36,818 nt of DNA from an uncultured Muribaculaceae bacterium (GCA_964371745.1 CAYJNS010000003.1:1-36818), one strand, 5' to 3'. Counted from the stretch's first letter, positions 709-35,640 are shown. Numbers and translations are program-made. The notes: generated by a model from the letters alone, not told the origin.

Positions 709-724
709 TTTATACACAAAGACA

Positions 725-6866: not shown

Positions 6867-6921
6867 GTAATGTAGTATATTTGTTACAAAAAGATTTTTC
6901 TTTTTGTAAGGGGGAAATATT

Positions 6922-19988: not shown

Positions 19989-20013
19989 CAATTATATTGT
20001 CGTTTTTTATTTA
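19986..20013 (+). terminator. Rho-independent terminator after trmB
   Basis: gacaat (19987-19992) / attgtc (19996-20001) with loop tat, followed by gttttttattt. Confidence 0.6.
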
Positions 20014-20042: not shown

Positions 20043-20072
20043 TTGTATTGTATTGCTATGTTATGTTAAAAT
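20043..20072 (+). promoter_or_regulatory. Putative extended -10 promoter of the first A/B module
   Basis: TTGTAT (20043-20048), 18-nt spacer ending in TGt, TAAAAT (20067-20072). Confidence 0.4.
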
Positions 20073-20094
20073 ATTATTAGAAGGTAAGGTAGAA

Positions 20095-20850
20095 ATGAAA
20101 AAATTATTATACATATTATTTATATTAATACCATTAGCGGTTAATGCAGAAGGAACATGCTCTTACGAAGAACAAGCAGAGCTTTCAAGAAACGCTAACC
20201 TTATTAGTGTTAATTTTGAAGAAATAGTACTTGAAAAAGTTTTGGATGAAAATAGTGTATTGCCAGACCCTGCAATAGACGAAGATGAAAATGGCAATCC
20301 TATTGAAATGAAATATAAAATAGATGCATTAAGAGTAAATGTTTTGAATTTATCGGAAGACTATTATATAGATTTTAAAAATGAAACAACCGGAGAATTT
20401 TGGTCGATAGATTATGAAGATACAGAAGCTGGATATTATTATTTTAATCATGAAGATGTATATGATGTTCACAGTTTAACATATACAATTTTATCTTCTG
20501 ATAAAACTAATTGTTCACATGAAAAAATAAGATTAGGATATTTAATATTACCTAGATTAAACGATAATTATTATTTGGATATCTGTAGTGAATTTTCAGA
20601 TAAAACTGTCTGTCAAAAATATGTTACAATAGGTGATATTTCTATTGATGAATTTTATAATCAAATTGATTCTTATAGGGAAGAAGAAATAACTAATGAA
20701 GAACAATTGGAAGAAGAAAAAGAAAATGAAAAAAGTATAGTAGATTATATAATGGATAATATATATTATATACTAGCAGGTTTAATAATAGTTGTGATAC
20801 TGATTTTTATTATCAACATAATAATAAAAAGAAGGAGAACTCGCTTATGA
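20095..20850 (+). CDS. Module protein A1: secreted domain with 4 conserved Cys, C-terminal TM anchor and basic tail (unknown family)
   Basis: ATG 20095 follows gaaggtaagg. Signal peptide MKKLLYILFILIPLAVNA. C-terminal LAGLIIVVILIFIINIIIKRRRTRL. Paralogue of 24932-25681, sharing CSYEEQ..L...ANLI..N.E and a conserved Cys pattern. Confidence 0.8.
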   Translation: MKKLLYILFILIPLAVNAEGTCSYEEQAELSRNANLISVNFEEIVLEKVLDENSVLPDPAIDEDENGNPIEMKYKIDALRVNVLNLSEDYYIDFKNETTGEFWSIDYEDTEAGYYYFNHEDVYDVHSLTYTILSSDKTNCSHEKIRLGYLILPRLNDNYYLDICSEFSDKTVCQKYVTIGDISIDEFYNQIDSYREEEITNEEQLEEEKENEKSIVDYIMDNIYYILAGLIIVVILIFIINIIIKRRRTRL

Positions 20851-23800
20851 GAAAAATAATTAAATATTTAACATTTGTACTTGTTATTTACTTTTTTATG
20901 TTTTCAAATGTTAATGCAAATTATACTATTGAATTATCTAATTTGCAAAGCAATTTAAGAGACATTAACGTTGTGCCGAATGGTGGGTATGGAAATAGAA
21001 TAATAGTTGATAATTTATATATAGTTAATCATAGTGGTCTTGATTTGGTTGAAACAACATCTCAGATATACTCATATAAATCTGGAGTAACAAAAAAATC
21101 TGGAATACCTACAAATATTTCATCTGACGAGGATATGGAAAATAAAAATGCATATAGTCATGATGTTTTTTGGGTTATGCCATATGCAGCAGATATCGCA
21201 GAAAATAATAATTCTAAATTTACTAATGCATATTGTTTAGATTTAAATTTGAATGGTATCAGTGGCCCAGTTAGTGCGGAATCTGAGCAACTAATTTTAT
21301 TCGATGTTGAAAACGAATCAGTGTTAAGATATCATTCTGGATTATATGCAATTTTAGAATATGATGATAATTTAGGATTATCAGATCAAAATTTATATTA
21401 TGCCAAAGTTCTTGCACTTAGAATATTTTTAGGATTATATGGAGCATCAAGTAATCAAGATATATTTGATACTAATTCGTATCCTTGGTATAAAGATGCC
21501 TTAATAAACACATTTAATTTATGGTATGATGAAGATACGGATATTACATCTTCTTTTAATATTTTGAAAACATTAGATGGTAATTTTTCAATAAGTAGAA
21601 CCTCTGAATATCCAAATTACCAATTATATTCATTTGATAATACTTCAAAAAATGTTTATACTGCGATGTATGATATGGTTTTAGAAGGAATAGATGCAGC
21701 AATTGAAGGTTCTGTTAGCAGTAAAAATGATAGCGATTCTGGTTTTTATGTTATTTTAAGCCCTTTAAATTCAATTATAGATAAAGAAGGAGATATAATT
21801 AATTATTCAGCTAATTTACAAGCTAGTGTTGATGTAAAAGGATTTGCTTCTCAAGATAGAATAACAAATATAACATTAAGTTTAAATGGGTCAAATATTT
21901 ATATTAATCCTAATGAAGATTTATTTAATATAAAGAAAAATGGTAGTATGCAAAAAACTTCTTTAAATAATTTGAAAAACGAAGATTTATCTAAAATATC
22001 ACAAATAACATTTATTCATGATGTTAATGAAAATATATCACTATCATCTTGTGGTAATTTGAATTTTAAATTTGATATAAATTATACTTCAAATACTACT
22101 AATAGCGGACTGACGGAATATATTTATGTAAAATCAGATAAATCCGGTGATCAAAGATTTTTAGTTGAAAGTTCAAATAATGTTTCTGGGCCATCTGGTT
22201 CTATAAAAAACTATAGTGAATCTATTTCTATTCCTATTGACTGTAATAATACTCCTGATTGTGATACAACAATAAATATAGCAGGATCTTGCGAAGCTAA
22301 TGGTAATTTTAATGGGGAAATAGTAGCTCCAACAGATATATTAAATTGTATTATAGATGGTAGTGACGAAGCAAATAATTCTTATGCAATATCAAAACCA
22401 GGGGGGAATATATGCAGTGTAAATGATTCGGATGAGGGTTTATCACATTTATTAAATGATAATGAGTATTGTGAAGTTTTTTGTAAAGAGGATTATACTA
22501 ATATTAATCTTCCAGATATAGCGCACGCTAATAGTGGTAGATATTTTAAGCTAGAAGCTTTAATAACTGGTAAAAAAACTTGTTATACAACCGAAATAAA
22601 TTATGATGAATTTAATAGTGATTTAAATGCAGCAACGGCAGAAATGAGTGCAGCCTATAGACGCTTTGAAATAGCGACTAACTCACTTCAAAGTTTAGAA
22701 AATACATTAATTAGTAAAAATAATGATATGGTTTCTGCAATTAAGGATAAAGAAAGTCCTGAAATTTCATATGATTTAGTTAAAATAGCTGATGCACGTC
22801 AAATTGCTGCAAGCGCAGCGTTAACATATGCCGAAAACAAGTTAGATGCATTAGAAACAATTGATTCAAATGTAGATACAATTAGTACAAATTCTACAAG
22901 CATAAGTTCAAAAGAAAAGTCCGTTACTAGTAAACAAAATTTAATCGATTCATATAACAATCAAATAGATGCTATTAATAAGGCTAACGCTGATAAACCC
23001 GAGGATGAACATCAATCAACATCATATCAAGAATCTCGAATAAGCGCATTAACAGAAGAAATAAGGAATTTAAATTCTAGTATTACTGAGTTAAAATCTG
23101 ATAACGATGATTTAACTAAAAAAAATACTGAATTAAAGGAAAAATATAACATTCAAACATGGGAAACTATAGCAAGTCAACAAATAGTTGTTAATAATGC
23201 AAAAACGGAAAAAACTAATGCTGAAAATAATTATTATAAAGTTTGTTATACAGAAAAACATTGTGATAATGATGATAATTATTTATCATTAAAAATTTCA
23301 TATGATAATGCTGAAGAAGCTTATGATACTGCTTTAAATAATTTGGAATCTACTCTAAAAAGTATAGATGCTGAAATTTCTAATATGAATTTAGCAAAAT
23401 CTAAACAAGATTCCATTTTAGATCATATAATTGCCTGCGGTGAATGGGATGTCAATTTTAAAATAAATCCAACAATGACATTTGATTATGGCAGTGGATA
23501 TATGAATTATTTTGAAGATAAAGGTGTAACTAATTTAGTGAATACTAATAGTTCAACATACGTTACAGATGTATGGGGATGCGATTTTAACAATAATTCA
23601 TCTGCATATATAAATAATGAATATAATAGATGTTATGGTGGTAGAGTATTAGATAGTGAAAACGAATTATACGAAGAAATTACAATAACATATTATAAAG
23701 GTAATAAGGGGACTATAACTCTGCAAAGCGGGGAAAGTAGAATAGAACCAGTTAGTTATACAGGGAATACTGTTGATTATGTTGAATATGATGGTGTCGA

Positions 23801-24851
23801 AGGTCATGATGGATCATATACTTTTTATGATTCAAATAATAAATCTGAAAAATATCCATTTGGTAATTATAATGATAAACTTAATTATAACGTTTATGGT
23901 TCTGTTATTCAGTATAATATTTTTATACCTAAAGCAGAATTTATAAGTAAATCAAGCGAAGGAACCGAAGAATATGAAACACCTAGCGCTTTATATACTA
24001 CTTTTCCTACTGGTGAAGTTACTAAGGAAGCTGTAAGTAATAGTTCGATAATAAATGGTTTGCCAGTTGGATCAGATGAAAATAGTGGTAAATATACATT
24101 GATTATTGATGATTTAGGTGAATATTATGACGATTGTAGTTTAGGAAGACTAATTGATGCTGATCAAACTAAAAATTCAGTTGACGATGTTCTTAATGTC
24201 GCTGGTACAACAGGTAGATATATATGTGATTATATAATAGATTGTCCAGATTGTGATTATGTAGGTGAATGTGATGATGGTTTATGCGGTGAAGATATTT
24301 GTGAAACGTGTTTGTTTGTTGGTGGTATTTCACAATTATATTATAGAATTATAAGTTTAAATAATTTTAACCCGAATAATAGAAATTTAGGATATAATTT
24401 TGATACTGCTGACTATGATTTTGGTTTTATTAGAGGTAAAGCTGAATCAACTCTTGACTTTATTTCAAGAGATTCCATAGTTTTTGGCAAAGGCGAAGCA
24501 ATCTATGGTGAAGAACCATTAGCTTCAGTTACAATGACACCTTCTTTCGCTAATGATGTAAGAACTTATAATCGAGAAGAAGAAAATAAAGGAGCATACA
24601 ATAATGAAACACTAGTGTGTTACGATTATGGAACATATGAAAACGTAATGTGCTATTCAACATTTTTAGATAATTATAGTAAAAGCGGAGATATAATATT
24701 TAGTTCTAGCGAAATTAGACCTAGCGTAGATGAAAGAGATGATTATGAAGACACAGATGGTAATGATTATTGGGATTTTTACACATATGGTATTAATACT
24801 GATTTTGGTTCCACATCGCCTAATACGATAGGTGGACCATCTTGGAAATAG
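20847..24851 (+). CDS. Module protein B1: giant (1334 aa) secreted Cys-rich protein with a central coiled coil, ending in IGGPSWK (unknown family)
   Basis: ATGA overlap with A1 and RBS GAAGGAGA. Signal peptide ...FMFSNVNA. Conserved blocks shared with B2: YC.V.CKEDY, SGRYFK, C.EWD/C.GWD, FPTG, DLGE(Y/F)Y..C..GRL, DCP.C, ISLNN.NPN.R..GYNF.T, TYENV.CYS and the terminal TIGGPSWK. Confidence 0.85.
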   Translation: MRKIIKYLTFVLVIYFFMFSNVNANYTIELSNLQSNLRDINVVPNGGYGNRIIVDNLYIVNHSGLDLVETTSQIYSYKSGVTKKSGIPTNISSDEDMENKNAYSHDVFWVMPYAADIAENNNSKFTNAYCLDLNLNGISGPVSAESEQLILFDVENESVLRYHSGLYAILEYDDNLGLSDQNLYYAKVLALRIFLGLYGASSNQDIFDTNSYPWYKDALINTFNLWYDEDTDITSSFNILKTLDGNFSISRTSEYPNYQLYSFDNTSKNVYTAMYDMVLEGIDAAIEGSVSSKNDSDSGFYVILSPLNSIIDKEGDIINYSANLQASVDVKGFASQDRITNITLSLNGSNIYINPNEDLFNIKKNGSMQKTSLNNLKNEDLSKISQITFIHDVNENISLSSCGNLNFKFDINYTSNTTNSGLTEYIYVKSDKSGDQRFLVESSNNVSGPSGSIKNYSESISIPIDCNNTPDCDTTINIAGSCEANGNFNGEIVAPTDILNCIIDGSDEANNSYAISKPGGNICSVNDSDEGLSHLLNDNEYCEVFCKEDYTNINLPDIAHANSGRYFKLEALITGKKTCYTTEINYDEFNSDLNAATAEMSAAYRRFEIATNSLQSLENTLISKNNDMVSAIKDKESPEISYDLVKIADARQIAASAALTYAENKLDALETIDSNVDTISTNSTSISSKEKSVTSKQNLIDSYNNQIDAINKANADKPEDEHQSTSYQESRISALTEEIRNLNSSITELKSDNDDLTKKNTELKEKYNIQTWETIASQQIVVNNAKTEKTNAENNYYKVCYTEKHCDNDDNYLSLKISYDNAEEAYDTALNNLESTLKSIDAEISNMNLAKSKQDSILDHIIACGEWDVNFKINPTMTFDYGSGYMNYFEDKGVTNLVNTNSSTYVTDVWGCDFNNNSSAYINNEYNRCYGGRVLDSENELYEEITITYYKGNKGTITLQSGESRIEPVSYTGNTVDYVEYDGVEGHDGSYTFYDSNNKSEKYPFGNYNDKLNYNVYGSVIQYNIFIPKAEFISKSSEGTEEYETPSALYTTFPTGEVTKEAVSNSSIINGLPVGSDENSGKYTLIIDDLGEYYDDCSLGRLIDADQTKNSVDDVLNVAGTTGRYICDYIIDCPDCDYVGECDDGLCGEDICETCLFVGGISQLYYRIISLNNFNPNNRNLGYNFDTADYDFGFIRGKAESTLDFISRDSIVFGKGEAIYGEEPLASVTMTPSFANDVRTYNREEENKGAYNNETLVCYDYGTYENVMCYSTFLDNYSKSGDIIFSSSEIRPSVDERDDYEDTDGNDYWDFYTYGINTDFGSTSPNTIGGPSWK

Positions 24852-24877
24852 AAAATAAAAAGAATAGAGATTATTTA

Positions 24878-24907
24878 TTGCAATTTATGATGATTTTGTG
24901 ATAAAAT
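24878..24907 (+). promoter_or_regulatory. Putative extended -10 promoter of the second A/B module
   Basis: TTGCAA (24878-24883), 18-nt spacer ending in TGa, TAAAAT (24902-24907). It lies inside the loop of a 10-bp inverted repeat (24867-24876 / 24904-24913). Confidence 0.4.
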
Positions 24908-24931
24908 AATCTCGAAAGGCAGGTTGAAAAA

Positions 24932-25681
24932 TTGAAAAAAATCTTGTTAACTTTGGTGGTATTGCTTACACCAATGTTGGTTAGTGCAGAAAGTGCTTGT
25001 TCTTATGAAGAACAAAGTGATTTAAATGCAAATGCTAATCTTATTAAAATAAATTATGAAGCGAAAGAAAGGTTAGTAGATCCAGATGAATATTTTTATC
25101 CAGAGGATGTAGAAACTGAAGAAGAACGTGCAGAATTTGAAATGTATGAATCTTATTTGGAAATAAATGTTTTAAATATGACAGATCAATATTACATTGA
25201 AATGACTAATAATTTAAATAATGAAGTTAATACAATAAATTATAATGATTTAGTTGATGGTGTTTATAAATATGAATTGACTGATTTAAGTGAAGTAATT
25301 ACATTTGATTTTTTAATTAAATCATCTTCGCTTACTTCTTGTCCGAATGAATCTATTAAATTAACGTATCTTACAACTCCTAGAGAAAACGAATATTATT
25401 ATTATGATGTATGTAGTGATTTAAGTGATGAAAATATTTGTAAACAATTTGTAACTGGTGAAGAAATAACCATAGATGAATTTCAAAAGCAAGTTGAAGA
25501 TTTAGCAATTGTAGATGATGGTACAACAAGTGGAGAAGATAAAAACAGTGAAGATTCTAATTCGTTTTTAGATTTTATTAACGACAATATTATTGTTATA
25601 GCTGTTGGTTTAATTGTAGTGGTAATAGGGGTAATAGTTGCTACAGATGTGATACGAGGGAAAAGGAGAAAATTAAAATGA
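24932..25681 (+). CDS. Module protein A2 (paralogue of A1)
   Basis: TTG start follows aaaggcagg. Signal peptide MKKILLTLVVLLTPMLVSA. C-terminal TM plus RGKRRKLK. Same 4-Cys pattern as A1. Confidence 0.8.
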   Translation: MKKILLTLVVLLTPMLVSAESACSYEEQSDLNANANLIKINYEAKERLVDPDEYFYPEDVETEEERAEFEMYESYLEINVLNMTDQYYIEMTNNLNNEVNTINYNDLVDGVYKYELTDLSEVITFDFLIKSSSLTSCPNESIKLTYLTTPRENEYYYYDVCSDLSDENICKQFVTGEEITIDEFQKQVEDLAIVDDGTTSGEDKNSEDSNSFLDFINDNIIVIAVGLIVVVIGVIVATDVIRGKRRKLK

Positions 25682-28533
25682 AAAAGATGAAATTATTTTT
25701 AACTTTTACTTTGTTTATTATGCTGAATTTTATAATTGTTAATGTTGATGCAAGTGAAAATGATTATAAAATGGGAAACACCAATAAAATGGATGATTTA
25801 AAAGTGTTCGAAAATTATAGTCCATACGAATACGATTTGGAGTATAATGGAAAGTGGTATCCAGCAATATGCATAGATCCTGCTGCAGTTCCTGGGAAGG
25901 ACTCTATTAAAAAAATCGAATTGTCAACAGAAGACTATGCAATTATAGAAAATATTCTAAGTGCAGATATAGAGGGTTTATCTGATGAATCTTATCCATT
26001 TGACACATTATATTATTATATGACTACTGAACAAAAAGAACATTTTTATACTAAATTAATAGCGGTTCGAGTGTATACAACAAATTTTTCTACTACTATT
26101 GATAGAAAAACATCAAAAATTGCTTCTGGTTATGTACATATAGGTAAAGAATGGTTTGAAAATGAAAGTTGGTATGCTGCAAGTTATATACAAAAAAATT
26201 ATAGTCAAGATACATTATCAAAATATAACTTTGTGGATGCTGATATTGAAAAAAATGCGAAAAAATTAGTTGAAGATGCTATGGAAAATTCATCTAATAA
26301 TAATACAACAGAAGTTGTTATGCCTAGTATAGAAGTTATTTCTGGGAATTCACGAATTTCTGTAGATGAAAATAATCAAAAAATCATTTCAAAAACAGTA
26401 ACATTGAATCCACAAAATTTTGGTGAAAATGGAATGCTTAATTCATTATCAATAACTTCAGCTGATTTAAGTTTGTTTTCAAGCATTAAAATTAATGGAG
26501 AAGAGCAAAGTTCATTAACGGATTATGCATTAAAAGATAATAAAACAATAACTATTGAATTGACTGGTTATGGATTAGATGATGATTGTGATGAAACTGA
26601 TTTTAGTTTAACATATACTTATTACGACGATGCATTAAAATCAGATGAAAATGTATCAAGAGAAGTAGTGGCTTTTCAAAAAGGTTCTGCTTATCAAAGA
26701 TATATTATTTATATAGAATCTGATGGGCAAGATGATGGTAAAAGAACTGAAACAAAACCATTAGGGATGGATTTATGTCCTTATTCATGTAATACAACTA
26801 TAACTATTCCTAATACATGTTTAAATGTTGATGGGACTTATAATGAAGATGATGTTGCTGGAGTTATAACTGGACCAACAAATATTGGTAAATGTATAAC
26901 TAATACAAATGCTGAAGATGAAGCTGGTAATAAATATCAAGCTGGAGGATGCTCTTATACAGTTTTAGAAAACGGTGAAACAAAAGAAATCCCTAATGGA
27001 TTAGCAACTGTTTCAACAAGTAAATATTGTAATGTTTCATGTAAAGAAGATTATAATCCAATAAAATTTTCTGGAGTTCAAAGAGCTACAAGCGGCAGAT
27101 ATTTTAAAGTAGCTGCAGAAATATCAGGAACTAAATCTTGTTATACAAATGAAATAAATGTAGATCAGTTTGAAATTGATATAGCTGATGCATCTTCAAG
27201 AATGAAGGAAGCACTTACCGCATCTGAAGAAGGCACAATAGATCAAGCATTTTACGATGCTGCTAAAGCTGATTTTGATAAAGCTGTTAAAGATATAGAA
27301 TCTTGTACAGGTTGGGATATGCAGTATGCTTTAACTCCAACTGTCGAGTATACTTATGAAGACAATTATTTTAAAGATTTAGAAATAGCTGATGAAGATA
27401 AAAATTTAAATATTGTTTCTGATACAAATACAGATAGAGAATATTATTATTGTACTGATGGTAATAAAAATTATACTGATTGTGAGAACGTTATTAAAGA
27501 TGAATTAAAAACTTCTAAAAATTATTCTTATGTAAATATAGATGGAAGTTCTACTGGTGTATCAGTAAATATTCCAAAAACAAGTTATATAAAACAAAGT
27601 ATTTCAAAAACAGTATTATATGATACTCCAGAAATATTTTATACTGAGTTTCCAACTGGAAATATAATTTACAATCCAACAGATGAACAAAAAGATCAAA
27701 GTCAAATAGTTGACGGTTTACCAATAGATGGTAACTTAGAAAATGGTTTATATAACTTTAAATTTACTATAAAAGATTTAGGTGAATTTTATAATAATTG
27801 TGAACCTGGTAGACTAGTAAATGATGACGATAGAAAATCTGTTGCCGAAGAATTAACAGATACTAATACAACTAAATTTGAAAATGAATATGTATGTAAA
27901 TATTTAGTAGATTGTCCTGAATGTGAATTTGAAGGAGATTGGGAAGAATTTGATCCTTATTGTCCTAATTGTATTTTCACAGGAAATATTGATAATTTGA
28001 GTTTTAGAACAATAAGCTTAAATAATGTTAATCCTAATGATAGAGATATGGGATACAATTTTAATACAGAAACTAATTTTGGATTTATTTCTGGAAAAGC
28101 AGAAAAAACATTAGGTAAAATCGAAGATAATGAAGGTATAATTGGATTGGGTGAAAGCATATATGAACAAACTCCAGTTTTATCAGTAGAAGTTACACCT
28201 GATTTAGCAAAAACAATAAGAGAAACAAACAATGATTTAGGATCGTATCAAAATGATACACTTACTTGTTATGATTATACAGAAAATGGTGTAACATATG
28301 AAAATGTATTCTGTTATAGTGATTATTTAGATATGTTTACTGATGGAGATTATGTAGAGTATAGTGAAAACTTTACATTTGCTAATAGACCTGAAGAAGA
28401 ACAAAGAACAAATAATACATCACCATATTGGCAAACTTATACAACGACTGATAATAAAGAATTATATGATGATATAAGTAAAGATTTTGGTATAGATGAT
28501 GATACAACTATTGGTGGACCATCATGGAAATAA
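25678..28533 (+). CDS. Module protein B2: 951-aa secreted Cys-rich paralogue of B1, ending in IGGPSWK
   Basis: ATGA overlap with A2 and RBS AAAGGAGA. Signal peptide ...FIIVNVDA. Same conserved blocks as B1 but without the long coiled-coil segment. Confidence 0.85.
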   Translation: MKKMKLFLTFTLFIMLNFIIVNVDASENDYKMGNTNKMDDLKVFENYSPYEYDLEYNGKWYPAICIDPAAVPGKDSIKKIELSTEDYAIIENILSADIEGLSDESYPFDTLYYYMTTEQKEHFYTKLIAVRVYTTNFSTTIDRKTSKIASGYVHIGKEWFENESWYAASYIQKNYSQDTLSKYNFVDADIEKNAKKLVEDAMENSSNNNTTEVVMPSIEVISGNSRISVDENNQKIISKTVTLNPQNFGENGMLNSLSITSADLSLFSSIKINGEEQSSLTDYALKDNKTITIELTGYGLDDDCDETDFSLTYTYYDDALKSDENVSREVVAFQKGSAYQRYIIYIESDGQDDGKRTETKPLGMDLCPYSCNTTITIPNTCLNVDGTYNEDDVAGVITGPTNIGKCITNTNAEDEAGNKYQAGGCSYTVLENGETKEIPNGLATVSTSKYCNVSCKEDYNPIKFSGVQRATSGRYFKVAAEISGTKSCYTNEINVDQFEIDIADASSRMKEALTASEEGTIDQAFYDAAKADFDKAVKDIESCTGWDMQYALTPTVEYTYEDNYFKDLEIADEDKNLNIVSDTNTDREYYYCTDGNKNYTDCENVIKDELKTSKNYSYVNIDGSSTGVSVNIPKTSYIKQSISKTVLYDTPEIFYTEFPTGNIIYNPTDEQKDQSQIVDGLPIDGNLENGLYNFKFTIKDLGEFYNNCEPGRLVNDDDRKSVAEELTDTNTTKFENEYVCKYLVDCPECEFEGDWEEFDPYCPNCIFTGNIDNLSFRTISLNNVNPNDRDMGYNFNTETNFGFISGKAEKTLGKIEDNEGIIGLGESIYEQTPVLSVEVTPDLAKTIRETNNDLGSYQNDTLTCYDYTENGVTYENVFCYSDYLDMFTDGDYVEYSENFTFANRPEEEQRTNNTSPYWQTYTTTDNKELYDDISKDFGIDDDTTIGGPSWK

Positions 28534-28546
28534 AGGATGTGAATAG

Positions 28547-28948: not shown

Positions 28949-28974
28949 ATGATACATAAAATTGGAGGAATAAA

Positions 28975-29766
28975 ATGGGAAGTTTTTTAGGAATTATTAA
29001 AAGATTTTTATCAAATAAAAATACAGTTACTATTTTAGCGGTAATAATTGGGATTATAGTACTTTGGTTCTTTTATGATATGCGTGTTAATGAAGCTATA
29101 TCGCCACTGTCAATACCTTATGCTAAAGCTGAAATTGGTGCAACTAATGAAATAACTGAAGATGATATTGGATTTGTTGAAATTAATAGTGCATTTGTTA
29201 GTAGTGTAAATATAATAACAAATTCACAATTATTAATTGGTCAATATGTAACTACTGGAACATCAATACCAGAAGGAGGGCTTTTCTATCAATCACAAGT
29301 TGTAGAAAAAGGAGCTTTACCTAACGCGGTATTTGATGATATACCAGAAGGTTATACATTATTTTCATTACCGGTAAATAATAACTCAACATATGGTAAC
29401 TCAATATATCCTGGAGATAGAATTGATTTATATGTTAAGTTTACAGATGACTTAAATAAAATAAATTTTGGTAAATTTGTAGAGAGTATAGAAGTTTTAG
29501 CAGTTCGTGACTCATCACAAAATGATGTGTTTGAAAATACTGATACTGGTCAATCAGCAATATTATTATTTGCTGTACCTGATGATGTAAATGATCCAAA
29601 TAAAAATTTATTTAACTTACTAACTCAAGCAAGTTTTATTTCTGGACTTGAAATAATACCAGTTCCAAGAAATAAAGCTTACACTGATACATCAGCCGAG
29701 ACAACAGTTCAAAGTGATACAATCAGAGCGTATATAGAAGCTAAAACAACAACAGTAAATAACTAA
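28975..29766 (+). CDS. cpaB: CpaB/RcpC-like Flp pilus assembly protein (SAF domain)
   Basis: N-terminal TM helix. SAF-like segment YAKAEIGATNEITEDDIGFVEI. Then IPEGYTLFSLPV...IYPGDRIDLYV, typical of CpaB. Located directly upstream of the ATPase. Confidence 0.6.
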   Translation: MGSFLGIIKRFLSNKNTVTILAVIIGIIVLWFFYDMRVNEAISPLSIPYAKAEIGATNEITEDDIGFVEINSAFVSSVNIITNSQLLIGQYVTTGTSIPEGGLFYQSQVVEKGALPNAVFDDIPEGYTLFSLPVNNNSTYGNSIYPGDRIDLYVKFTDDLNKINFGKFVESIEVLAVRDSSQNDVFENTDTGQSAILLFAVPDDVNDPNKNLFNLLTQASFISGLEIIPVPRNKAYTDTSAETTVQSDTIRAYIEAKTTTVNN

Positions 29767-29782
29767 AAAAGAGGGTGATAGT

Positions 29783-30874
29783 GTGAATGATGCAATATTT
29801 TCACAATTAGATTTTGGTCCATTAAAAGAATTTCTTGACGATGAAAATGTTACAGACGTTTCATACGGTAATGGTGGCCAAATACATTTAAAAACACTTG
29901 ATAAAGGTGTTTATAGAATTGAAAGACCAGACATTAATAATGCATTAATGGAAAAGCTGGCCTTTCAGTGTTCTAATGTAATGGGTACTACATTTAATAT
30001 GGCGCACCCTTTTTTAGATGCTGAAAGTACAGAGCTTCGTTTAAACTTTGTACACGAATCAATAGCAACTAATGGAGTAGCTTGCGTTATACGTAAAACT
30101 CCAGCTAAAATAAGATTAAATAAAGAGAAATTATTGGATGAAAAATATATAACTGAAGAGTTGCATAACTTTTTAGTTACATGTGTACATGGACATTGTA
30201 ATATCATTGTAAGTGGAGAAACTGGTTCTGGTAAAACAGAGTTAGTAAAATATTTAGCAGCTCAAACAGGTGAAACAGAAAAAGTAATAACTATTGAAGA
30301 TACATTAGAGCTTCATTTAGACAAAATATTTCCACATAGAGATATAGTTGCTATGAAAACAAATAATATAGCATCATACTCTGATGTACTTGTTACTTGT
30401 ATGAGACAAAATCCTCGTTGGATTTTACTATCAGAAGTACGTTCTGCAGAAGCAGTTACAGCTGTTAGAAATTCAATATCATCTGGACATAATATTATAT
30501 CAACAATACACTCTGATAGAGCAAAAAATGTACCAATGCGTCTATATTCACTTCTTGAATCTAATCAAGATATAGATCAGTTTTTAAAATCTATTCATAG
30601 ATATGTACAGCTTGCTATTCATGTAAAAGGATATATGAGTAAAGAACTTGGTAGATTTCAAAGGGAAATTGTTGAAATATGTGAATTTTATGTAACCGAT
30701 GATAATGAAGCAAATTTAAATATAATATATAAAAAGAATTTAGATGGTAAAGTAGCTGTAAGTAATCCATCTAAATATTTAATAGATTATTTAGGTGCTC
30801 AAGGTGTTACTTTAGATGGGAATTTATTTAAAGAAGAAACAGTAAATAATGATAATTTAGTTGAATCATTATAG
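29783..30874 (+). CDS. tadA: CpaF/TadA-type secretion ATPase (T2SS-E / VirB11 superfamily)
   Basis: GTG start follows AGAGGGTGA. Walker A SGETGSGKTE. Walker B/Asp-box region MRQNPRWILLSEVRSAEA. His box SGHNIISTIHS. 363 aa. Confidence 0.85.
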   Translation: MNDAIFSQLDFGPLKEFLDDENVTDVSYGNGGQIHLKTLDKGVYRIERPDINNALMEKLAFQCSNVMGTTFNMAHPFLDAESTELRLNFVHESIATNGVACVIRKTPAKIRLNKEKLLDEKYITEELHNFLVTCVHGHCNIIVSGETGSGKTELVKYLAAQTGETEKVITIEDTLELHLDKIFPHRDIVAMKTNNIASYSDVLVTCMRQNPRWILLSEVRSAEAVTAVRNSISSGHNIISTIHSDRAKNVPMRLYSLLESNQDIDQFLKSIHRYVQLAIHVKGYMSKELGRFQREIVEICEFYVTDDNEANLNIIYKKNLDGKVAVSNPSKYLIDYLGAQGVTLDGNLFKEETVNNDNLVESL

Positions 30875-30885
30875 AAAGGTAGTTT

Positions 30886-31791
30886 ATGGGAACAGGTTTA
30901 GAACTTTTAATATTACTAGCACTCGTTATATTTATAATTGTTTATAGAATGAATCCTGGAGAAAAAACATATAAGTTTTTTGTAACTAAGGTTTCTGAAG
31001 CTTATGAAAAGTTTGCTCCGTATTCATTTAAAGAAGTAAGAAAAAAAACTAAAGCATTAGGCCAAGAATATACAGCAAAGCAGTATACTGCTCAAGTAAT
31101 AATTTTTGCAGCTGTTGCAGGTGGTATATCATATTTTTACTTTTATAGTATTATATGGGCAATTATTTATGCTGTTATAGCAGTGTTATTTATACCATAT
31201 TTAGCATATTTGCGTAGTATGAGACTTTATAGTGAATATATTTTTGAACAAATACAAATATATACTACCAACGTTATAATGGAATTTAATACAACACAAA
31301 GTTTTGTTAAATCACTTGAAGGAGTAAGAGACTCTGGAATACTGGAAGACCCTGTATTAACTGATTTAAAAAACATGATACAAATGTCATATGATAATGG
31401 TACAATAGATGAATCAATTATTTATTTTAATGAAAAATACCCATATTATATGGTTAAAAATATGAACCAATTATTTTTACAGATTACTAAAGAAGGAGCT
31501 AGAGATTCAGGTCAATCTTTAGAAAATATGTCACTAGATATAGACTCACTTGTTGAAGGCGTTTATAGAGATCAAATGGATAGAAAAGCATTCCATGGTA
31601 AATTTGTAAGATTTGGTATGATATTATTTTTACTAGTTTTAGCGCTTCAATATATGTTAGGTGTTGATAACTATTTAGAATTACTTGAAACATGGTATGT
31701 TCAAATAATATTACATATGATTATAATTGTTAATGCATTTTTCTTAATTAAAGGAGAAAAATATTATAACGAAGATATAGGTGGTGAATAA
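30886..31791 (+). CDS. tadB: TadB-like inner-membrane platform protein (T2SS-F family)
   Basis: 301 aa. Topology is an N-terminal TM, a TM pair, a cytoplasmic ~130-aa helical domain and a C-terminal TM pair. Located immediately after the ATPase. Called from topology and synteny, not motifs. Confidence 0.55.
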   Translation: MGTGLELLILLALVIFIIVYRMNPGEKTYKFFVTKVSEAYEKFAPYSFKEVRKKTKALGQEYTAKQYTAQVIIFAAVAGGISYFYFYSIIWAIIYAVIAVLFIPYLAYLRSMRLYSEYIFEQIQIYTTNVIMEFNTTQSFVKSLEGVRDSGILEDPVLTDLKNMIQMSYDNGTIDESIIYFNEKYPYYMVKNMNQLFLQITKEGARDSGQSLENMSLDIDSLVEGVYRDQMDRKAFHGKFVRFGMILFLLVLALQYMLGVDNYLELLETWYVQIILHMIIIVNAFFLIKGEKYYNEDIGGE

Positions 31792-31793
31792 TT

Positions 31794-32582
31794 ATGCCGT
31801 ATGAAGTTTTAATTATAGCAGCCTTAGCATTTATTGTAATGACAGTAAATGGTCATATAAGCGTTACTAAGCTTGTTAGTGATAATGAAGCATTATTTAG
31901 AAAATTAAAAGAAGAAGATTGGGACTTTTTAGTTAGAGCTAAATATGGTGAAAATGCTAATCCGAATTCTTTATTTAATAAAAGAATAAAAACAGGACTT
32001 ATTACATTTTTTGTAGCAATATTATTTTTCTTAAATAATTTTAGCGCTCTAAGTATATTAGTAGCACTTATAGCAGCATATTTTTTATTTAAATCTAGTT
32101 ATTCGCAGTTAAAAGGTTTTTATAAAAAAAATATTCACTTAATAGATGATATGCTTCCACATTATTTAAAAAATATAGAAATATTGATTCAACATTATAC
32201 AGTGCCTGTAGCTATTGGTAAATCAATGGCTGATGCACCAGATATATTTAAAAATGGATTGCAAGATTTAATTAATGAAATTAATAGTGGTGATAATACA
32301 ATTGATCCATATATGAATTTTGCTAAAAAATATCCAGTAAGAGATTCAATGAGAATGATGAGACTTTTATATCGTTTATCACTTGGTAGACAAGAAAGAA
32401 AACAAGAACAGTTATTAACATTTTCAAAATCAATTTCCAGTTTACAACAAAAAGCAAGAGATACAAGATATAAAAATAGACTTAATAAAATGGAAGGTAA
32501 GACTATGGGAATGCTTGTAGCTACTGGATTAGGTGTTATGGTACTTCTAATTTTAGCAGTTTTACAAATGATGAACATGTAG
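31794..32582 (+). CDS. tadC: TadC-like inner-membrane platform protein (T2SS-F family)
   Basis: 262 aa. Same topology class as the preceding gene and a 2-nt gap. The paired platform genes are characteristic of Tad loci. Confidence 0.55.
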   Translation: MPYEVLIIAALAFIVMTVNGHISVTKLVSDNEALFRKLKEEDWDFLVRAKYGENANPNSLFNKRIKTGLITFFVAILFFLNNFSALSILVALIAAYFLFKSSYSQLKGFYKKNIHLIDDMLPHYLKNIEILIQHYTVPVAIGKSMADAPDIFKNGLQDLINEINSGDNTIDPYMNFAKKYPVRDSMRMMRLLYRLSLGRQERKQEQLLTFSKSISSLQQKARDTRYKNRLNKMEGKTMGMLVATGLGVMVLLILAVLQMMNM

Positions 32583-32606
32583 TTTACACTTTTTTACCAA
32601 AAATAA

Positions 32607-32635
32607 TTGATATTTAAAAAAATATTAGGTATAAT
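32607..32635 (+). promoter_or_regulatory. Near-consensus sigma-A promoter in front of the pilin-like genes
   Basis: TTGATA (32607-32612), exactly 17 nt, TATAAT (32630-32635). RBS AGGAGG (32651-32656) precedes ATG 32666. Confidence 0.7.
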
Positions 32636-32665
32636 AAGTATATAAAATAAAGGAGGAATTTTAAA

Positions 32666-32938
32666 ATGAAAGAAGCAACGGGAGAATTAAATATGACAGT
32701 TATTACTGTTGTAGCAATAGCAGCAGTAGCAGCATTAGTATATGCGTTCGTTTGGCCAGCTATTGAAGATTCAATTAGAAAAAACACAATTTGCTCAGGT
32801 GGTAATGGTACAGTAGTAGATGGAGAAAAGGCAGTATGTACAAGTTTAGCTGATGGTCAAGTACAATGTAATCATCCTGATATTGATGCTAATGAACCAT
32901 TTACTTGTGATAATGTAGCTAATAGTTCAACTCCTTAA
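32666..32938 (+). CDS. Flp-like pilin candidate 1 (90 aa, 4 Cys in the C-terminal part)
   Basis: Short charged leader MKEATG, then the hydrophobic helix ELNMTVITVVAIAAVAALVYAFVW, then a small Cys-containing domain. Has a strong RBS and its own promoter. Confidence 0.5.
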   Translation: MKEATGELNMTVITVVAIAAVAALVYAFVWPAIEDSIRKNTICSGGNGTVVDGEKAVCTSLADGQVQCNHPDIDANEPFTCDNVANSSTP

Positions 32939-32947
32939 GGATAATAT

Positions 32948-33178
32948 ATGAAAGAGGCTGTAGGAGAATTAAATACTACTGTAATAATCGTAGTCATAGT
33001 GGGGACATTAGCGGCCTTTTTTTTCTTAGTAATTTGGCCGGCAATAAATAATGATTTTAATAGAAATTCAAATTGTTCTGATGCTATATGTCCGCCTTGT
33101 GAGTCACCACAAGGATGTACTGTAGTTATGTGTACATTAGATGGTGGCAGTACAATAGAATGTCCATATAAGGGGTGA
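32948..33178 (+). CDS. Flp-like pilin candidate 2 (76 aa, 6 Cys)
   Basis: The N-terminus MKEAVGELNTTVIIVVIVGTLAAFFFLVIW is nearly the same as in candidate 1. The C-terminal 40 aa contain 6 Cys. Confidence 0.5.
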   Translation: MKEAVGELNTTVIIVVIVGTLAAFFFLVIWPAINNDFNRNSNCSDAICPPCESPQGCTVVMCTLDGGSTIECPYKG

Positions 33179-33186
33179 TTTAGTTA

Positions 33187-33699
33187 ATGAAAGAATCAGT
33201 AAGTAGTGCGTTTTTATTTAATATAGTAGTGCTTTTTATATTACTATTTACAGGTATAATGAGTTTAACAATTAATAGAACAAGAGCATATACTGTTAAA
33301 GATAATATTATAAATGCAATAGAAAGAAGCGATGGGAATTTAGATTTAACTATTCCTTTAGGAAGTAACTCTGATATTGTAAATGCTATGGCAGATGATT
33401 CTTATAGGGCAACAGGTAATTGTGAAGAATTTAATAGTCAGGATAGTGATAATACATATAGTGAATTTGATAGAGATAATACATATAGTGGATTTGATAG
33501 AGATGGAAAAGGACCACTTACTTTTAATAATGAAAACTCTTCTATCTGTATTAAAAAAATAAATTCCGGTATTAACAATGGCTGTTATTATAATATTATT
33601 TTATTTTATAAATTAGACTTACCAATATTAAGAAATGTTTTTGAATTTTCAGTAACTGGAGAAACCAAAGTATTACCAGGGTGTGGTGATAATTCATGA
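33187..33699 (+). CDS. Pseudopilin/TadE-like N-terminally anchored protein (170 aa)
   Basis: N-terminal helix AFLFNIVVLFILLFTGIMSL. C-terminal block ILFYKLDLPILRNVFEFSVTGETK is shared with the next ORF. Contains an in-frame 27-bp tandem duplication. Confidence 0.4.
   Translation: MKESVSSAFLFNIVVLFILLFTGIMSLTINRTRAYTVKDNIINAIERSDGNLDLTIPLGSNSDIVNAMADDSYRATGNCEEFNSQDSDNTYSEFDRDNTYSGFDRDGKGPLTFNNENSSICIKKINSGINNGCYYNIILFYKLDLPILRNVFEFSVTGETKVLPGCGDNS
33448..33501 (+). repeat. 2 x 27-bp in-frame tandem repeat (DNTYSEFDR / DNTYSGFDR)
   Basis: gataatacatatagtgaatttgataga (33448-33474) is repeated at 33475-33501 with one A-to-G difference. Confidence 0.95.
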
Positions 33700-34154
33700 A
33701 TAATTCAATAGGTACCACTTGGGTAATGGGCTTAATGGTAACTTTTATATTTTTATTTTCTGCGTTTTTAATACTTGCAATTAATTATTCTGATGTTTTT
33801 AGACTGAGAAATGAAACTCTCACAATTTTAGAAAAATATGAAGGTTATACTGGTCAATCGAGATTAATTATAGATAATTTATTACAAACTAATGCTTATA
33901 AAACAAAAAGTGATTGTGAAGAAACTGAATATGGTGTAACTTTATTAGACGGAACTAGTGGTAGTATAGGTGCAGAAGATGCATTTTATTGTATAAGAAG
34001 AATAGATGATAATAAGGCACATGAATATTATGAAATTAAACTTTTTTATAAATTCAATTTACCGGTTATTGGAGAAATATTAACATTTCCAATTACTGGA
34101 GAAACCAAAGATATAACATTTTATGATTCTTTGGAAAATGATTATATAGAATAG
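33696..34154 (+). CDS. Pseudopilin/TadE-like protein, paralogue of 33187-33699 (152 aa)
   Basis: ATGA overlap with the upstream gene. N-terminal helix WVMGLMVTFIFLFSAFLILAI. C-terminal KLFYKFNLPVIGEILTFPITGETK. Confidence 0.4.
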   Translation: MNNSIGTTWVMGLMVTFIFLFSAFLILAINYSDVFRLRNETLTILEKYEGYTGQSRLIIDNLLQTNAYKTKSDCEETEYGVTLLDGTSGSIGAEDAFYCIRRIDDNKAHEYYEIKLFYKFNLPVIGEILTFPITGETKDITFYDSLENDYIE

Positions 34155-34165
34155 GAGGTAAAAAT

Positions 34166-35182
34166 ATGAACGTAATAATATCAAATAAATATCAAACACT
34201 TTTAGCAACTCTGGATATAGATGTTATAAAAGTAATTAATGGAGTGTTTACTTCAGAAGATATAATTAATCAATTTAGTAATTTTTTCTATAATAAAATG
34301 ATTATAGATATAACTGCAATTGGAGATTATCAAAATATTAATGTTATTAGAAATTTAACTATGAATTTAGATATGAGCAAGGTTATATTTTTACTAGATG
34401 ATTCAGTTGAAGTCAATGCACCTAAATATTTATCGCAATTAGTTTCAATGGGTATATATAACTTTACTAGTAAACCTGATATAGTAAAGTTTTTGATTGA
34501 TAATCCAAATCAATATAAGGATGTTGCAAATTATCAACAATTATCTACTGAAGGATCAACAGATGCTCCAGCTCCAGCTCCGAATAATATATTTAATTCA
34601 AATGCTGCACAACCACAACAAAAAATGGTACAGCAAAGAATTATAGGTCTTAAAAATGTAACAGATCATTCAGGATCTACAACTTTAGCCTATATTATGA
34701 GTAAACATTTAAGTAAATTATATAAAGTAAAAACAGTAGAAGTAGATTCATATGATTTTACTAATTTAAATGATAAAACGTTGGAAAGTATAGCTTCTAA
34801 TACGTTATCGAATTATATTACATCTAATATAGATAGTGAAATTATTATAGTTGATTTAAATAAATATGAAGGGGAAGGTATATGCTCTGAAATATTATAT
34901 TTAATTGAACCGGGTATGATTAAATTAAATAAATTAATTAAACAAGACGAAAAAATATTTGATAAATTAAAGGGTAAAAAAATTATTCTTAATAGAAGTG
35001 TATTAACCGCTAAAGATGTATCAGATTTTGAAAAAGAAAGTGGTAGTAAAATATACTTTAATCTACCAAATTTAGATGATAAACTTGAGCATGATAAAAC
35101 TGTAGTTGGATTTTTAATTGCACTAGGTTTTGCTAGATTTAGTGAAAATGATAATAAAGGCGGCTTATTTAACATGTTTTAA
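34166..35182 (+). CDS. TadZ/CpaE-like protein: receiver-like N-domain plus a ParA/MinD-like domain with a degenerate Walker A
   Basis: RBS AGGAGG. N-terminal ~110-aa alpha/beta-like domain, a low-complexity linker (DAPAPAPNN...QPQQK), then IGLKNVTDHSGSTTLAYIMSKHL where a MinD-type KGGxGK[ST] would sit, and later IIIVDL. Confidence 0.45.
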   Translation: MNVIISNKYQTLLATLDIDVIKVINGVFTSEDIINQFSNFFYNKMIIDITAIGDYQNINVIRNLTMNLDMSKVIFLLDDSVEVNAPKYLSQLVSMGIYNFTSKPDIVKFLIDNPNQYKDVANYQQLSTEGSTDAPAPAPNNIFNSNAAQPQQKMVQQRIIGLKNVTDHSGSTTLAYIMSKHLSKLYKVKTVEVDSYDFTNLNDKTLESIASNTLSNYITSNIDSEIIIVDLNKYEGEGICSEILYLIEPGMIKLNKLIKQDEKIFDKLKGKKIILNRSVLTAKDVSDFEKESGSKIYFNLPNLDDKLEHDKTVVGFLIALGFARFSENDNKGGLFNMF

Positions 35183-35203
35183 TGTAAAGTATTTACATTA
35201 TAG

Positions 35204-35232
35204 TTGACTAAAGTCTAAAAGTTAGATAGAAT
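35204..35232 (+). promoter_or_regulatory. Putative sigma-A promoter for the 119-aa membrane protein gene
   Basis: TTGACT (35204-35209), 17-nt spacer, TAGAAT (35227-35232). Preceded by the hairpin aatgtaaa/tttacatt (35181-35199). Confidence 0.5.
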
Positions 35233-35258
35233 ATATATAGAAAGAGGAGTGATTTTTA

Positions 35259-35618
35259 ATGATTGCAAATTTAGGTTTTTGTAGTTCTACAGTAGAAGTT
35301 TGGGATTTTATTGGAACATTTATTACAGTACTTAAAATTGTTATACCAATAATTATAATAATTATGGGGGCAATTGATTTAGGAAAGGCTGTAATAGCAA
35401 CTAAAGAAGATGAAATTAAAAAAGCATCAACGTCTTTATTTAAAAGACTTATTGCTGGATTAATAATATTCTTTATACCAACTATTGTTAATGCTGTATT
35501 TGGTCTTGTTAGTTCATTTTCAGAAGTAGAAAGTGATTACCAAGTATGTTTTGATTGTATAGCTGGTAATAGTGATGGTTGCGTGGCAACTGATGATGAG
35601 TCAGATGATGAAGAATAA
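35259..35618 (+). CDS. Small 2-TM membrane protein with an acidic Cys-containing tail (VirB2/TrbC-like topology; family not established)
   Basis: RBS AGAGGAG. TM1 FIGTFITVLKIVIPIIIIIMGAI, loop DLGKAVIATKEDEIKKASTSLFKR, TM2 LIAGLIIFFIPTIVNAVFGLV, tail YQVCFDCIAGNSDGCVATDDESDDEE. Confidence 0.6.
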   Translation: MIANLGFCSSTVEVWDFIGTFITVLKIVIPIIIIIMGAIDLGKAVIATKEDEIKKASTSLFKRLIAGLIIFFIPTIVNAVFGLVSSFSEVESDYQVCFDCIAGNSDGCVATDDESDDEE

Positions 35619-35640
35619 CTGTTTTTAACAGTTTTTTTTT
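35617..35640 (+). terminator. Rho-independent terminator closing the locus
   Basis: aactgtt (35617-35623) / aacagtt (35627-35633) with loop ttt, followed by T7. Confidence 0.75.

Follow-up and report, generated by a model that had tools for sequence, protein, structure and literature searches.

The closest described systems to the locus considered here, which occupies positions 20095–35618 of a 36,818-nucleotide (nt) stretch of DNA from an uncultured Muribaculaceae bacterium (GCA_964371745.1, CAYJNS010000003.1:1-36818; this whole stretch is called the window below), are the canonical Tad/Flp pili (Aggregatibacter tad, Caulobacter cpa and Bifidobacterium breve tad), two gene clusters of Clostridia, and the adhesin-led operons of pLS20-type conjugative plasmids. 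The first of the clostridial clusters is a predicted "secretion-related" operon of Roseburia, Ruminococcus and Eubacterium, which encodes CpaF, PilC/GspF, DUF5411 and internalin-like proteins (Miller et al. 2022; PMC9523054). The second is a divergent Tad-like cluster in TANB77 (Clostridia), a group of uncultured gut Firmicutes; it has been annotated mostly from structure and contains CpaB, TadZ/CpaE, TadA, TadB/C and several unannotatable pilin-like proteins (PMC11680825). In pLS20, efficient mating in liquid depends on the large adhesin TIE, which lacks an LPXTG motif and is sortase-independent (PMC8092201). The literature on pili of RF39 or Tenericutes yielded nothing on the system described below.

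The window locus consists of 15 co-directional, tightly packed plus-strand open reading frames (ORFs) and is one operon, with a probable additional promoter inside it. From 5′ to 3′ the intergenic gaps computed from the ORF coordinates are −4, 80, −4, 13, 26, 16, 11, 2, 83, 9, 8, −4, 11 and 76 nt, in agreement with an earlier reading made from the sequence alone (the sequence-only reading), which had counted 15 same-strand genes with gaps of −4 to about +83 nt. The first four genes form two tandem units, A1-B1 and A2-B2, in which A is a small membrane protein and B a very large secreted one, and the genes that follow encode the machine itself. With moderate confidence, we read it as the operon of a Tad-like type IV filament machine, monoderm and highly divergent, that displays B as an adhesin.

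The machine genes follow the canonical Tad/Flp arrangement in several respects. The 363-amino-acid (aa) secretion ATPase (29783–30874), of the CpaF/TadA-VirB11 group, matches Pfam T2SSE at 5.3e-28 (98 bits against a cutoff of 24.9), and its nearest solved relative is CpaF (3.6e-19), ahead of FlaI, archaeal GspE and VirB11; its scores against the NCBIfam TadA, VirB11 and TrbB models are all far under their cutoffs. The motifs GETGSGKT, RWILLSEVR and GHNIISTIHS that the sequence-only reading had picked out are all present in the translation, and its CpaF/TadA assignment is supported. Directly before the ATPase gene, as in canonical systems, lies a gene for a CpaB/RcpC-like protein with an N-terminal transmembrane (TM) segment (28975–29766). 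The earlier assignment of this protein as a CpaB-like SAF protein finds matches of the right kind, each of them under its cutoff (RcpC at 1e-5, 25.9 bits with a cutoff of 28.8; TIGR03177 at 6.5e-9, 35 bits with a cutoff of 71), and the family hidden Markov model (HMM) matches at 1e-30 a "SAF domain" protein encoded by a Priestia koreensis plasmid, which itself passes Pfam SAF. Directly after the ATPase gene, again as in canonical systems, come two polytopic membrane proteins of ∼260–300 aa, one in the TadB position (30886–31791), a candidate for the platform, and one in the TadC position (31794–32582). The TadB-like protein matches a "T2SS F family" protein of the same Priestia plasmid (E 2e-11) that reaches 3.4e-5 and 24.2 bits with T2SSF, one bit below the Pfam cutoff of 25.2, and the TadC-like protein matches the product of the neighboring Priestia gene (E 4e-12). 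The earlier TadB and TadC assignments are therefore held up by a transitive T2SSF link through the Priestia pair and by no direct T2SSF match. The TadB-like protein belongs to a family with at least 8000 clusters at 90% identity, of near-identical length and all unannotated.

Next, as in canonical systems, are small pilin- and pseudopilin-like genes. Small pilin-like protein 1 (MKEATGELNMTVI..., 32666–32938) has 90 aa with four Cys in its head, and small pilin-like protein 2 (MKEAVGELNTTVI..., 32948–33178) has 76 aa and six Cys. They are followed by two pseudopilin-like proteins, pp1 (33187–33699) and pp2 (33696–34154), which are paralogues (E 1e-16); the pp2 HMM weakly matches DUF4320 or p40-like proteins on three plasmids (1.5e-4 to 1e-3). 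The gene between B2 and the CpaB-like gene (28547–28948), which the sequence-only reading had left for profile searches, clearly encodes a DUF5411 protein (PF17424, E 6.6e-54), also pseudopilin-like. All five of these proteins begin with a charged leader of 5–7 residues (M-K/R-E-x-x-G or MKxxYWG) followed by a hydrophobic helix, and these N-termini are almost invariant across relatives (M[KR]ExxG in pp1, MK..[YF]WGYWL in the DUF5411 protein). A cytoplasmic protein of 338 aa (34166–35182) occupies the TadZ position, where canonical systems have a protein of ∼340 aa, and the operon has no secretin, as expected for a monoderm. The last gene (35259–35618), also left for later searches, encodes a small two-TM protein with a CxxC tail; 11 of 26 members of its family match PF18895 (T4SS_pilin, VirB2-like; best E 7.6e-7, window copy 0.0075), so that it is VirB2/T4SS-pilin-like, a resemblance unremarked in the sequence-only reading. 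It gives no alignment with the Priestia DUF4320 protein.

These gene-by-gene matches place the machine, which is type IV filament-like, in the Tad/CpaF lineage as a very divergent member. No component reaches a curated Tad family cutoff (NCBIfam), and the window adds the DUF5411 protein, the VirB2-like protein and the A-B pair to the canonical set. The operons of Miller et al. (PMC9523054) resemble it in their CpaF-type ATPase, their PilC/GspF-like protein (to which the window has the transitive T2SSF link), DUF5411 and a large surface protein, the counterpart of B in the window; they differ in that the large protein is internalin-like and no A-type anchor is present, and that system is known by prediction. 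The TANB77 cluster (PMC11680825) differs in having a fused TadC-TadB protein of 693 aa, an ATPase of 640 aa and another gene set and order; no DUF5411 or A/B-like proteins are reported there.

A1 (20095–20850) and B1 (20847–24851) overlap by 4 nt, the stop of A1 running into the start of B1, and so do A2 (24932–25681, with a TTG start) and B2 (25678–28533). The sequence-only reading took the two pairs for paralogues, and pairwise identities agree: A1 and A2 share 36% identity from end to end (E 6e-40), and B1 and B2 share 39% in their C-terminal 340 aa (E 2e-64) and 33% in a central block rich in Cys. A1 has the architecture of a type I membrane protein, with a signal peptide, an ectodomain of ∼170 aa with four conserved Cys, an acidic linker, a C-terminal TM helix and a KRRR stop-transfer sequence, and in the family of ∼250-aa proteins to which it belongs C23, C137 and C170 (A2 numbering) and the TM-KKRRR tail are invariant. 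B1 (1334 aa, with a long coiled-coil insertion) and B2 (951 aa) are secreted proteins that begin with an ordinary signal peptide and end in IGGPSWK, with no TM segment at the C-terminus. Neither by sequence nor by Pfam do they carry a wall anchor of the LPXTG, SLH, CWB or LysM type. The description of B as Cys-rich needs some qualification: the Cys are concentrated in conserved motifs, and there are only 21–25 of them (∼2%) overall.

An exhaustive HMMER profile search finds 734 B-family clusters at 50% identity. Of these, 404 reach E ≤ 1e-30, and no source names a single one of the 734. Word-indexed searches with B2 or a four-sequence profile had given two relatives and the impression that B is nearly unique, which this search rejects. 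In an alignment of 57 divergent B sequences the N-terminal third is hypervariable and the C-terminal half is conserved, with invariant Cys, Gly and aromatic positions. Motifs of the Cys-rich core are YCxVxCKEDY, SGRYF and TKxCYT, and those of the conserved half are CxYxxxCPxC, NPNxRxxGxN and TPxxxxxIRxYN; a coiled-coil insertion is variable and ∼300 aa longer in B1, and stalk insertions of this kind spread the family over 795–1556 aa. GP[SA][WY][KR]-COOH is the exact end of nearly all complete B proteins listed. Neither A nor B has a significant Pfam or NCBIfam match (B1 gives just weak coiled-coil noise with Pfam), and the AlphaFold2 model of B2 (pLDDT 79.6, pTM 0.61) has no significant Foldseek neighbor in PDB or BFVD (TM score ∼0.1), in keeping with the earlier failure to assign A and B to any family. 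The model has N-terminal immunoglobulin (Ig)-like sandwiches, a coiled-coil hairpin, beta-rich domains and a flexible C-terminal tail, and shows a weak Ig-like resemblance to MSCRAMM adhesins and Gram-positive pilins. No B protein was found among PLSDB plasmids or in IMG/VR, and an origin of B as a phage receptor-binding protein is unsupported, there being no BFVD neighbor and no IMG/VR member. The B proteins form an undescribed family, most likely of adhesins displayed by the filament.

A signal peptide with no wall anchor could also mark a soluble exoprotein. The machine might work like a type II secretion system, with a short pseudopilus that pushes folded, disulfide-bonded B through the thick wall for release as a toxin, enzyme or signal, and with A as the membrane receptor that hands B over. 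The size of B (105–150 kDa) would hinder its diffusion across peptidoglycan, its extreme C-terminal motif is conserved in the manner of a sorting signal, an operon variant with no small pilins exists (below), and DUF5411 operons have been classed as "secretion-related" (PMC9523054). This explanation nevertheless seems unlikely, since Pfam, NCBIfam, PDB and BFVD give B neither an enzymatic nor a toxin domain, since a hypervariable N-terminal half, Ig-like sandwiches, a stalk of variable length and tandem copies better suit a binding protein, and since the counterparts of B in related modules (TIE, an isopeptide fimbrial protein and an Ig-like protein) are adhesins.

The association of A-B with the machine is a general one. 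A genome scan gave 169 confirmed B loci, of which 77 were examined, and all ORFs of the related loci were searched with the 15 window proteins; the conservation counts refer to 79 loci with 85 B genes. The sources are uncultured gut metagenome-assembled genomes (MAGs) labelled Bacilli, Tenericutes, Mycoplasmatota or Erysipelotrichaceae, plus Clostridium sp. CAG:609 and Candidatus Onthocola (Bacilli incertae sedis); some of the titles with "Muribaculaceae" look mislabelled. The first two relatives of B2 to be found both lie directly upstream of DUF5411-CpaB-ATPase genes, and 80 of the 85 B genes are directly followed by a DUF5411 gene, or by a further A-B unit, and then by CpaB, ATPase, TadB-like and TadC-like genes. 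The exceptions are three orphan A-B pairs (L015, L029 and L052) and one rearranged locus (L020). A lies upstream of B almost everywhere, and there are one to three tandem A-B units per locus. The sequence-only reading had the A/B pairs linked to the machine but pictured a pilus operon to which they had been joined; its linkage is borne out in these divergent loci, and the synteny shows A-B to be a constitutive 5′ part of this operon family. A predominance of A/B homologues apart from Tad genes, which would point to chance adjacency, was looked for across the related loci and is clearly not the pattern there. Judged from gene order, the linkage of A-B to the machine is functional rather than accidental, and the tandem second A-B copy in the window is a lineage-specific duplication.

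The rest of the operon is less constant. The CpaB gene is often doubled, and the block from the small pilins through pp1 and pp2 to the TadZ-position gene is missing from at least 12 related loci, which retain the last gene, and displaced in others. This variability fits the strong promoter-like site (TTGATA-17-TATAAT, 11 of 12 consensus matches) that lies at 32607–32635 in the 83-nt gap in front of the block. Twelve loci form a minimal sub-clade with the order A-B-DUF5411-CpaB-ATPase-TadB-TadC-last gene; in one of them (L050) unrelated genes follow the minimal operon directly, and several have the window's trmB-upstream neighborhood. In three loci (L003, L054 and L067) the repeated unit includes DUF5411. 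The two DUF5411 copies of L003 (5992–6405 and 10455–10868) are 100% identical in DNA, and their A and B partners are 36% and 40% identical; this could reflect cassette duplication, recombination at a conserved anchor or an artefact of MAG assembly. The DUF5411 ORF is two to four times longer (400–560 aa) in L027, L045, L062 and L079, as is that of pp1 in L025, L061 and L065, and these long ORFs may be modular pilins with extra C-terminal domains. Members of the last-gene family are fused into proteins of 350–460 aa in some relatives.

That A is a plausible anchor, that the pair is translationally coupled and appears to co-evolve (below), that orphan pairs occur away from the machine and that the pilin block is set apart by a probable internal promoter would all suit a self-contained surface complex, in which A holds B and a promoter is held in common with the pilus because both serve attachment. 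We consider such independence improbable: only 13 nt separate B2 from the DUF5411 gene, the A-B-DUF5411 order is invariant across very divergent genomes, DUF5411 has been duplicated along with A-B, and the layout of an anchorless adhesin before the machine recurs with unrelated adhesins that have no A-like partner.

That last layout is seen on plasmids. The best plasmid matches of the ATPase are conjugative or mobilisable plasmids of Gram-positive bacteria (Firmicutes). One related locus, at 163.7–169.5 kb of a Priestia koreensis plasmid (NZ_CP061869), has the order TadZ-like, probable small prepilin peptidase, SLH protein, Ig-like protein of 993 aa, DUF5411, SAF/CpaB, ParA-like, CpaF, T2SSF, TadC-like and DUF4320. 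Its CpaB, ATPase, TadB and TadC proteins are homologous to the window families (1e-30, 2e-58, 2e-13 and 1e-14, respectively). The large Ig-like protein is unrelated to B, there is no A-type anchor, and, unlike the window, the locus has an SLH protein as well as genes that are recognisably ParA-like and TadZ-like and probably TadV-like; this system too is known by prediction. Homology of B to the Ig-like protein was considered and rejected, as none was detected and a "TPxxxxxIRxYN" stretch common to both is not significant.

The operons of the pLS20 family (sampled in Bacillus, Peribacillus, Paraclostridium and Virgibacillus, in four loci of which one is pLS20-like) are the nearest mobile relatives, which the sequence-only reading had missed. 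Their order is a large adhesin (a thioester protein, TIE, or an isopeptide-forming one), a small TM protein, a CpaF/VirB11 ATPase, two polytopic proteins, DUF4320, duplicated 47-aa pilin-like proteins that start MLDQN[AT]DR, and TrbC/VirB2. In pLS20 itself these are genes 34–45 (TIE, p36, VirB11-like p37, p38, p39, p40/DUF4320, p41 and p45/TrbC-VirB2), and they have in common with the window the anchorless-adhesin-first order, a small protein with an N-terminal TM segment and a pseudopilin-like protein of ∼120 aa. Window HMMs match the ATPase (1e-48 to 1e-52), the TadC-like p39 family (1.3e-6) and DUF4320 (pp2, 1.5e-4 to 1e-3). The adhesins also have a conserved C-terminal W-x-K(K)-COOH, the TIE homologues ending in GW[ST]xxDxxW[LF]KK-COOH. 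In contrast to the window, the plasmid module sits within a conjugative type IV secretion system (T4SS; VirD4, VirB4, VirB6 and relaxase), has no CpaB, no DUF5411 Pfam match and no A partner, and its adhesin has thioester or isopeptide domains. There are hints that plasmids of this family form mating pairs by means of a filament. That unrelated anchorless large surface proteins fill the slot in front of homologous machines is the weightiest argument that this slot holds the presented protein.

Kinship with these plasmids also raises the idea that the locus is what remains in the chromosome of a pLS20-type conjugation module, or a relative of one, or else that it encodes a competence pilus, with B making the contact to the mating partner or to DNA. 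Besides the plasmid matches of the ATPase, the TadC-like, DUF4320-like and VirB2-like parts are common to pLS20-family operons, and TIE promotes mating (PMC8092201). A role in DNA transfer or uptake is nonetheless very improbable, as there is no relaxase, VirD4, VirB4, VirB6 or VirB1 in the window or among matched ORFs beside the operon in related loci, no ComEA/ComEC-type gene at the locus and no B in the plasmid and viral sets, and the chromosomal context is a housekeeping one with no integrase.

Rates of divergence separate the parts of the operon. Median identity to orthologues is 82% for the ATPase, 70% and 66% for the TadB-like and TadC-like proteins, 63% for DUF5411, 57% for the TadZ-position protein (in 42 loci), 49% for CpaB, 48% for the last gene, 46–48% for the small pilins and 38% for pp1 and pp2, and falls to 29–30% for A and 28–31% for B, which is alignable over just a quarter to a half of its length. 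Such a series is what one would expect on going from the cytoplasm to the cell surface, and A and B lie at its exposed, diversifying end. Distance matrices of A and of the C-terminal part of B correlate with r 0.87, and with a partial r of 0.68 given ATPase distance, the highest of the pairs tested; this is suggestive of A-B co-evolution, with shared phylogeny controlled by ATPase distance alone.

The same figures bear on a structural role, in which A and B would together form a wall-spanning conduit or alignment complex for the filament, a monoderm counterpart of the secretin/pilotin pair or the RcpC ring. A-B does stand at the 5′ end of essentially every operon in the family, the C-terminal half of B keeps its invariant Cys, Gly and aromatic residues across the 57 divergent sequences, and A is membrane-anchored. 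A part of the envelope apparatus would hardly be expected to evolve fastest, at ∼30% identity against 49–82% for the machine, to vary from one to three copies with orphans, to vary twofold in length (B), or to be replaced by unrelated proteins in this position of related modules, and we regard the structural role as quite improbable.

The reading of the locus as a Tad-like machine that displays B has a number of results against it. The label "Tad/Flp-type" of the sequence-only reading holds for the ATPase, and for little else without reservation. The TadB-like and TadC-like proteins have no Pfam (T2SSF at E ≤ 0.1), NCBIfam or PDB match even with family profiles, hhalign detects no paralogy between them, and the AlphaFold2 model of the TadB-like protein is of low confidence (pLDDT 63.6) and gives no fold match. 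The small pilins, with their conserved MKEATGELN[MT]TV[IV] N-terminus and Cys-rich heads, have no EY and thus not the Flp motif G/XXXXEY of canonical systems; neither 32666–32938 nor 32948–33178 matches Flp or any other pilin family in Pfam or NCBIfam, and pp1 and pp2 have no TadE_N match in Pfam, so that the earlier pilin-like assignments stand on the charged leader, the hydrophobic helix and the conserved N-termini. For the TadZ-like assignment position and size fit, but the protein has no Pfam (ParA included), NCBIfam or PDB match, and its hhalign probability with the Priestia ParA-like protein is 0.5%. No A24-like prepilin peptidase (TadV/CpaA) is encoded in the operon or elsewhere in the window. 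On the side of B, the orphan pairs stand away from any machine; minimal relatives have no pilin block nearby, and B is therefore not strictly dependent on those pilins in cis; the control for shared phylogeny in the A-B comparison is a single one; and because the B fold has no informative neighbor, the adhesin assignment leans on architecture and evolutionary behavior.

The sequence-only reading took B for cargo, a tip or adhesin subunit or a surface partner of the pilus, and A for its dedicated membrane partner. This is still the best reading, given the conserved linkage, the rates and the lack of anchors on B, with the function itself being what we infer. Our model would run as follows. Sec would export A, B, CpaB and the pilin-like proteins (for B, because its signal peptide is an ordinary one). 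The CpaF-type ATPase would power the machine, with the two polytopic proteins as its platform and the CpaB-like protein probably at the membrane's outer face. The filament would be a polymer of the small Cys-containing pilins, primed or capped by DUF5411, pp1 and pp2 as putative minor or priming pilins, and the VirB2-like two-TM protein may be an extra conserved membrane part. B would fold with disulfides outside the membrane and be held there by A before loading, A being a candidate membrane-anchored dock or chaperone of B, translationally coupled and perhaps co-evolving with it. Capture of B would be through its conserved C-terminal half and GP[SA]WK-COOH tail, and B would be shown on the filament or at its tip, most likely through DUF5411, with the hypervariable N-terminal half binding the target. 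The two A-B units of the window may then be alternative adhesins with different specificities.

PilY1/PilC of type IVa pili offers a working analogy of function, in a different class of machine: it is a large non-pilin exported by Sec, which docks through a conserved C-terminal part and binds through a variable N-terminal one, and its gene lies beside those of minor pilins. PilY1 is not known to have a dedicated membrane anchor partner, and B shows no PilY1 similarity in Pfam, nor does the B2 model give a beta-propeller or PilY1 match with Foldseek.

A wider proposal, which we put forward tentatively and regard as doubtful, is that these systems make up a class, so far undescribed, of type IV filament machines by which monoderms present adhesins, common to thousands of uncultured and probably host- or partner-dependent gut Bacilli and to pLS20-type plasmids. 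In it, anchorless adhesins with Trp-Lys tails (GP[SA]WK-COOH in B, W[LF]KK-COOH in TIE) would be loaded by a minor pilin of DUF5411 or p36 type, with A perhaps as dock and a CPBP protease perhaps in place of the prepilin peptidase, and B would be a new fold family that mediates adherence to hosts or partner cells. In gut metagenomes the machine is very common, as the counts of TadB-like and B clusters show, yet its specific parts are unnamed in any source. Its hosts, uncultured Bacilli MAGs variously labelled Bacilli, Tenericutes or Mycoplasmatota, are organisms whose attachment to hosts or partner cells it may bear on. The adhesin-before-CpaF-machine layout, together with the invariant B tail, suggests a testable answer to the question of how anchorless giant adhesins such as TIE are presented on Gram-positive cells, and DUF5411 and the unannotated TadB/TadC-like families acquire a concrete functional context. 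What appears new is a Tad-lineage machine that has an undescribed anchor-plus-putative-adhesin module as a constitutive part and a VirB2-like component, and that is related to the pLS20-type module.

Several genes adjoin A in relatives. Upstream of A and divergent from it is a gene for a CPBP/Rce1-like intramembrane protease (PF02517, 3e-17), at less than 160 nt in 22 of 65 loci related to the window and at no more than 1.1 kb in 28 (for example, L009 8502–9185, L014 8504–9127 and L001 7970–8695, all on the minus strand); this protease might process the B tail or the pilin leaders. A thioredoxin/PedC-like gene is also upstream of A in four loci (L001, L037, L040 and L048). Neither gene is present in the window. 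In L059, a sortase-like protein with a TLSTC motif (4967–6610, minus strand) and a small protein with an SPKTG sorting signal (6704–7369, plus strand) are encoded directly upstream of A, and they are a separate surface-display pair that adjoins the operon.

The operon is bounded on both sides by hairpins, in an AT-rich window of ∼26% G+C. Upstream, a hairpin with a U-tract (UUUUUU) closes trmB at 19980–20008 (plus strand; dG −10.7 kcal/mol, z −5.47), and downstream an AT-rich hairpin with a U-run at 35610–35640 (plus strand; dG −8.2, z −2.55) is the probable operon terminator and supports the earlier placement of a terminator after the last gene. Both were missed by a generic terminator scan because it demands at least three G-C pairs. 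A third hairpin, of 47 nt and with no U-tract, lies at 24867–24913 (plus strand; dG −14.1, z −3.2) in the 80-nt spacer between B1 and A2, and it is possibly a processing or stabilising element rather than a terminator. No riboswitch or other RNA element was found at the operon; the sole Rfam match in the window is a T-box leader (716–918, plus strand; RF00230, 120.5 bits, E 2e-26) directly before aspS (962–2698).

The flanks are housekeeping genes, and the sequence-only reading that the locus is chromosomally fixed agrees with them, with the failure to find an integrase, transposase or tRNA gene in the window and with the lack of B from the PLSDB and IMG/VR sets. Upstream are aspS behind its T-box, dnaB/dnaI, recA, rny, rnj, ftsY, ylxM, dacA, argS and trmB (TrmB, Pfam 6.7e-37), and downstream is an ABC ATPase with GTNGAGKTT, LSKGNQQK and LDEPFSGLD motifs. 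A weak IstB_IS21 match at 5335–6225, considered as a sign of an insertion sequence, was rejected, as the gene reads as DnaI beside DnaB_2. At 14693–15700 (minus strand) a full-length match to PF09139 (1e-30) marks a bacterial homologue of Tam41/Mmp37, the mitochondrial phosphatidate cytidylyltransferase; the family is unusual in a Firmicute. Between argS and trmB, 18944–19336 (minus strand) encodes a small protein rich in Q, N, M and P whose C-terminal coiled coil is XhlA-like (PF10779, 2e-4); a homologue of this protein is kept beside trmB in three of the related loci (L053, L059 and L079). On the other side of the operon, 35662–36075 (minus strand) encodes an N-terminally anchored protein of 137 aa. 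It looks like a shortened copy: homologues in 21 related loci, likewise convergent just downstream of the operon, are mostly 400–500 aa long. Pfam finds no domain in the two long homologues that were searched (L009 and L007).

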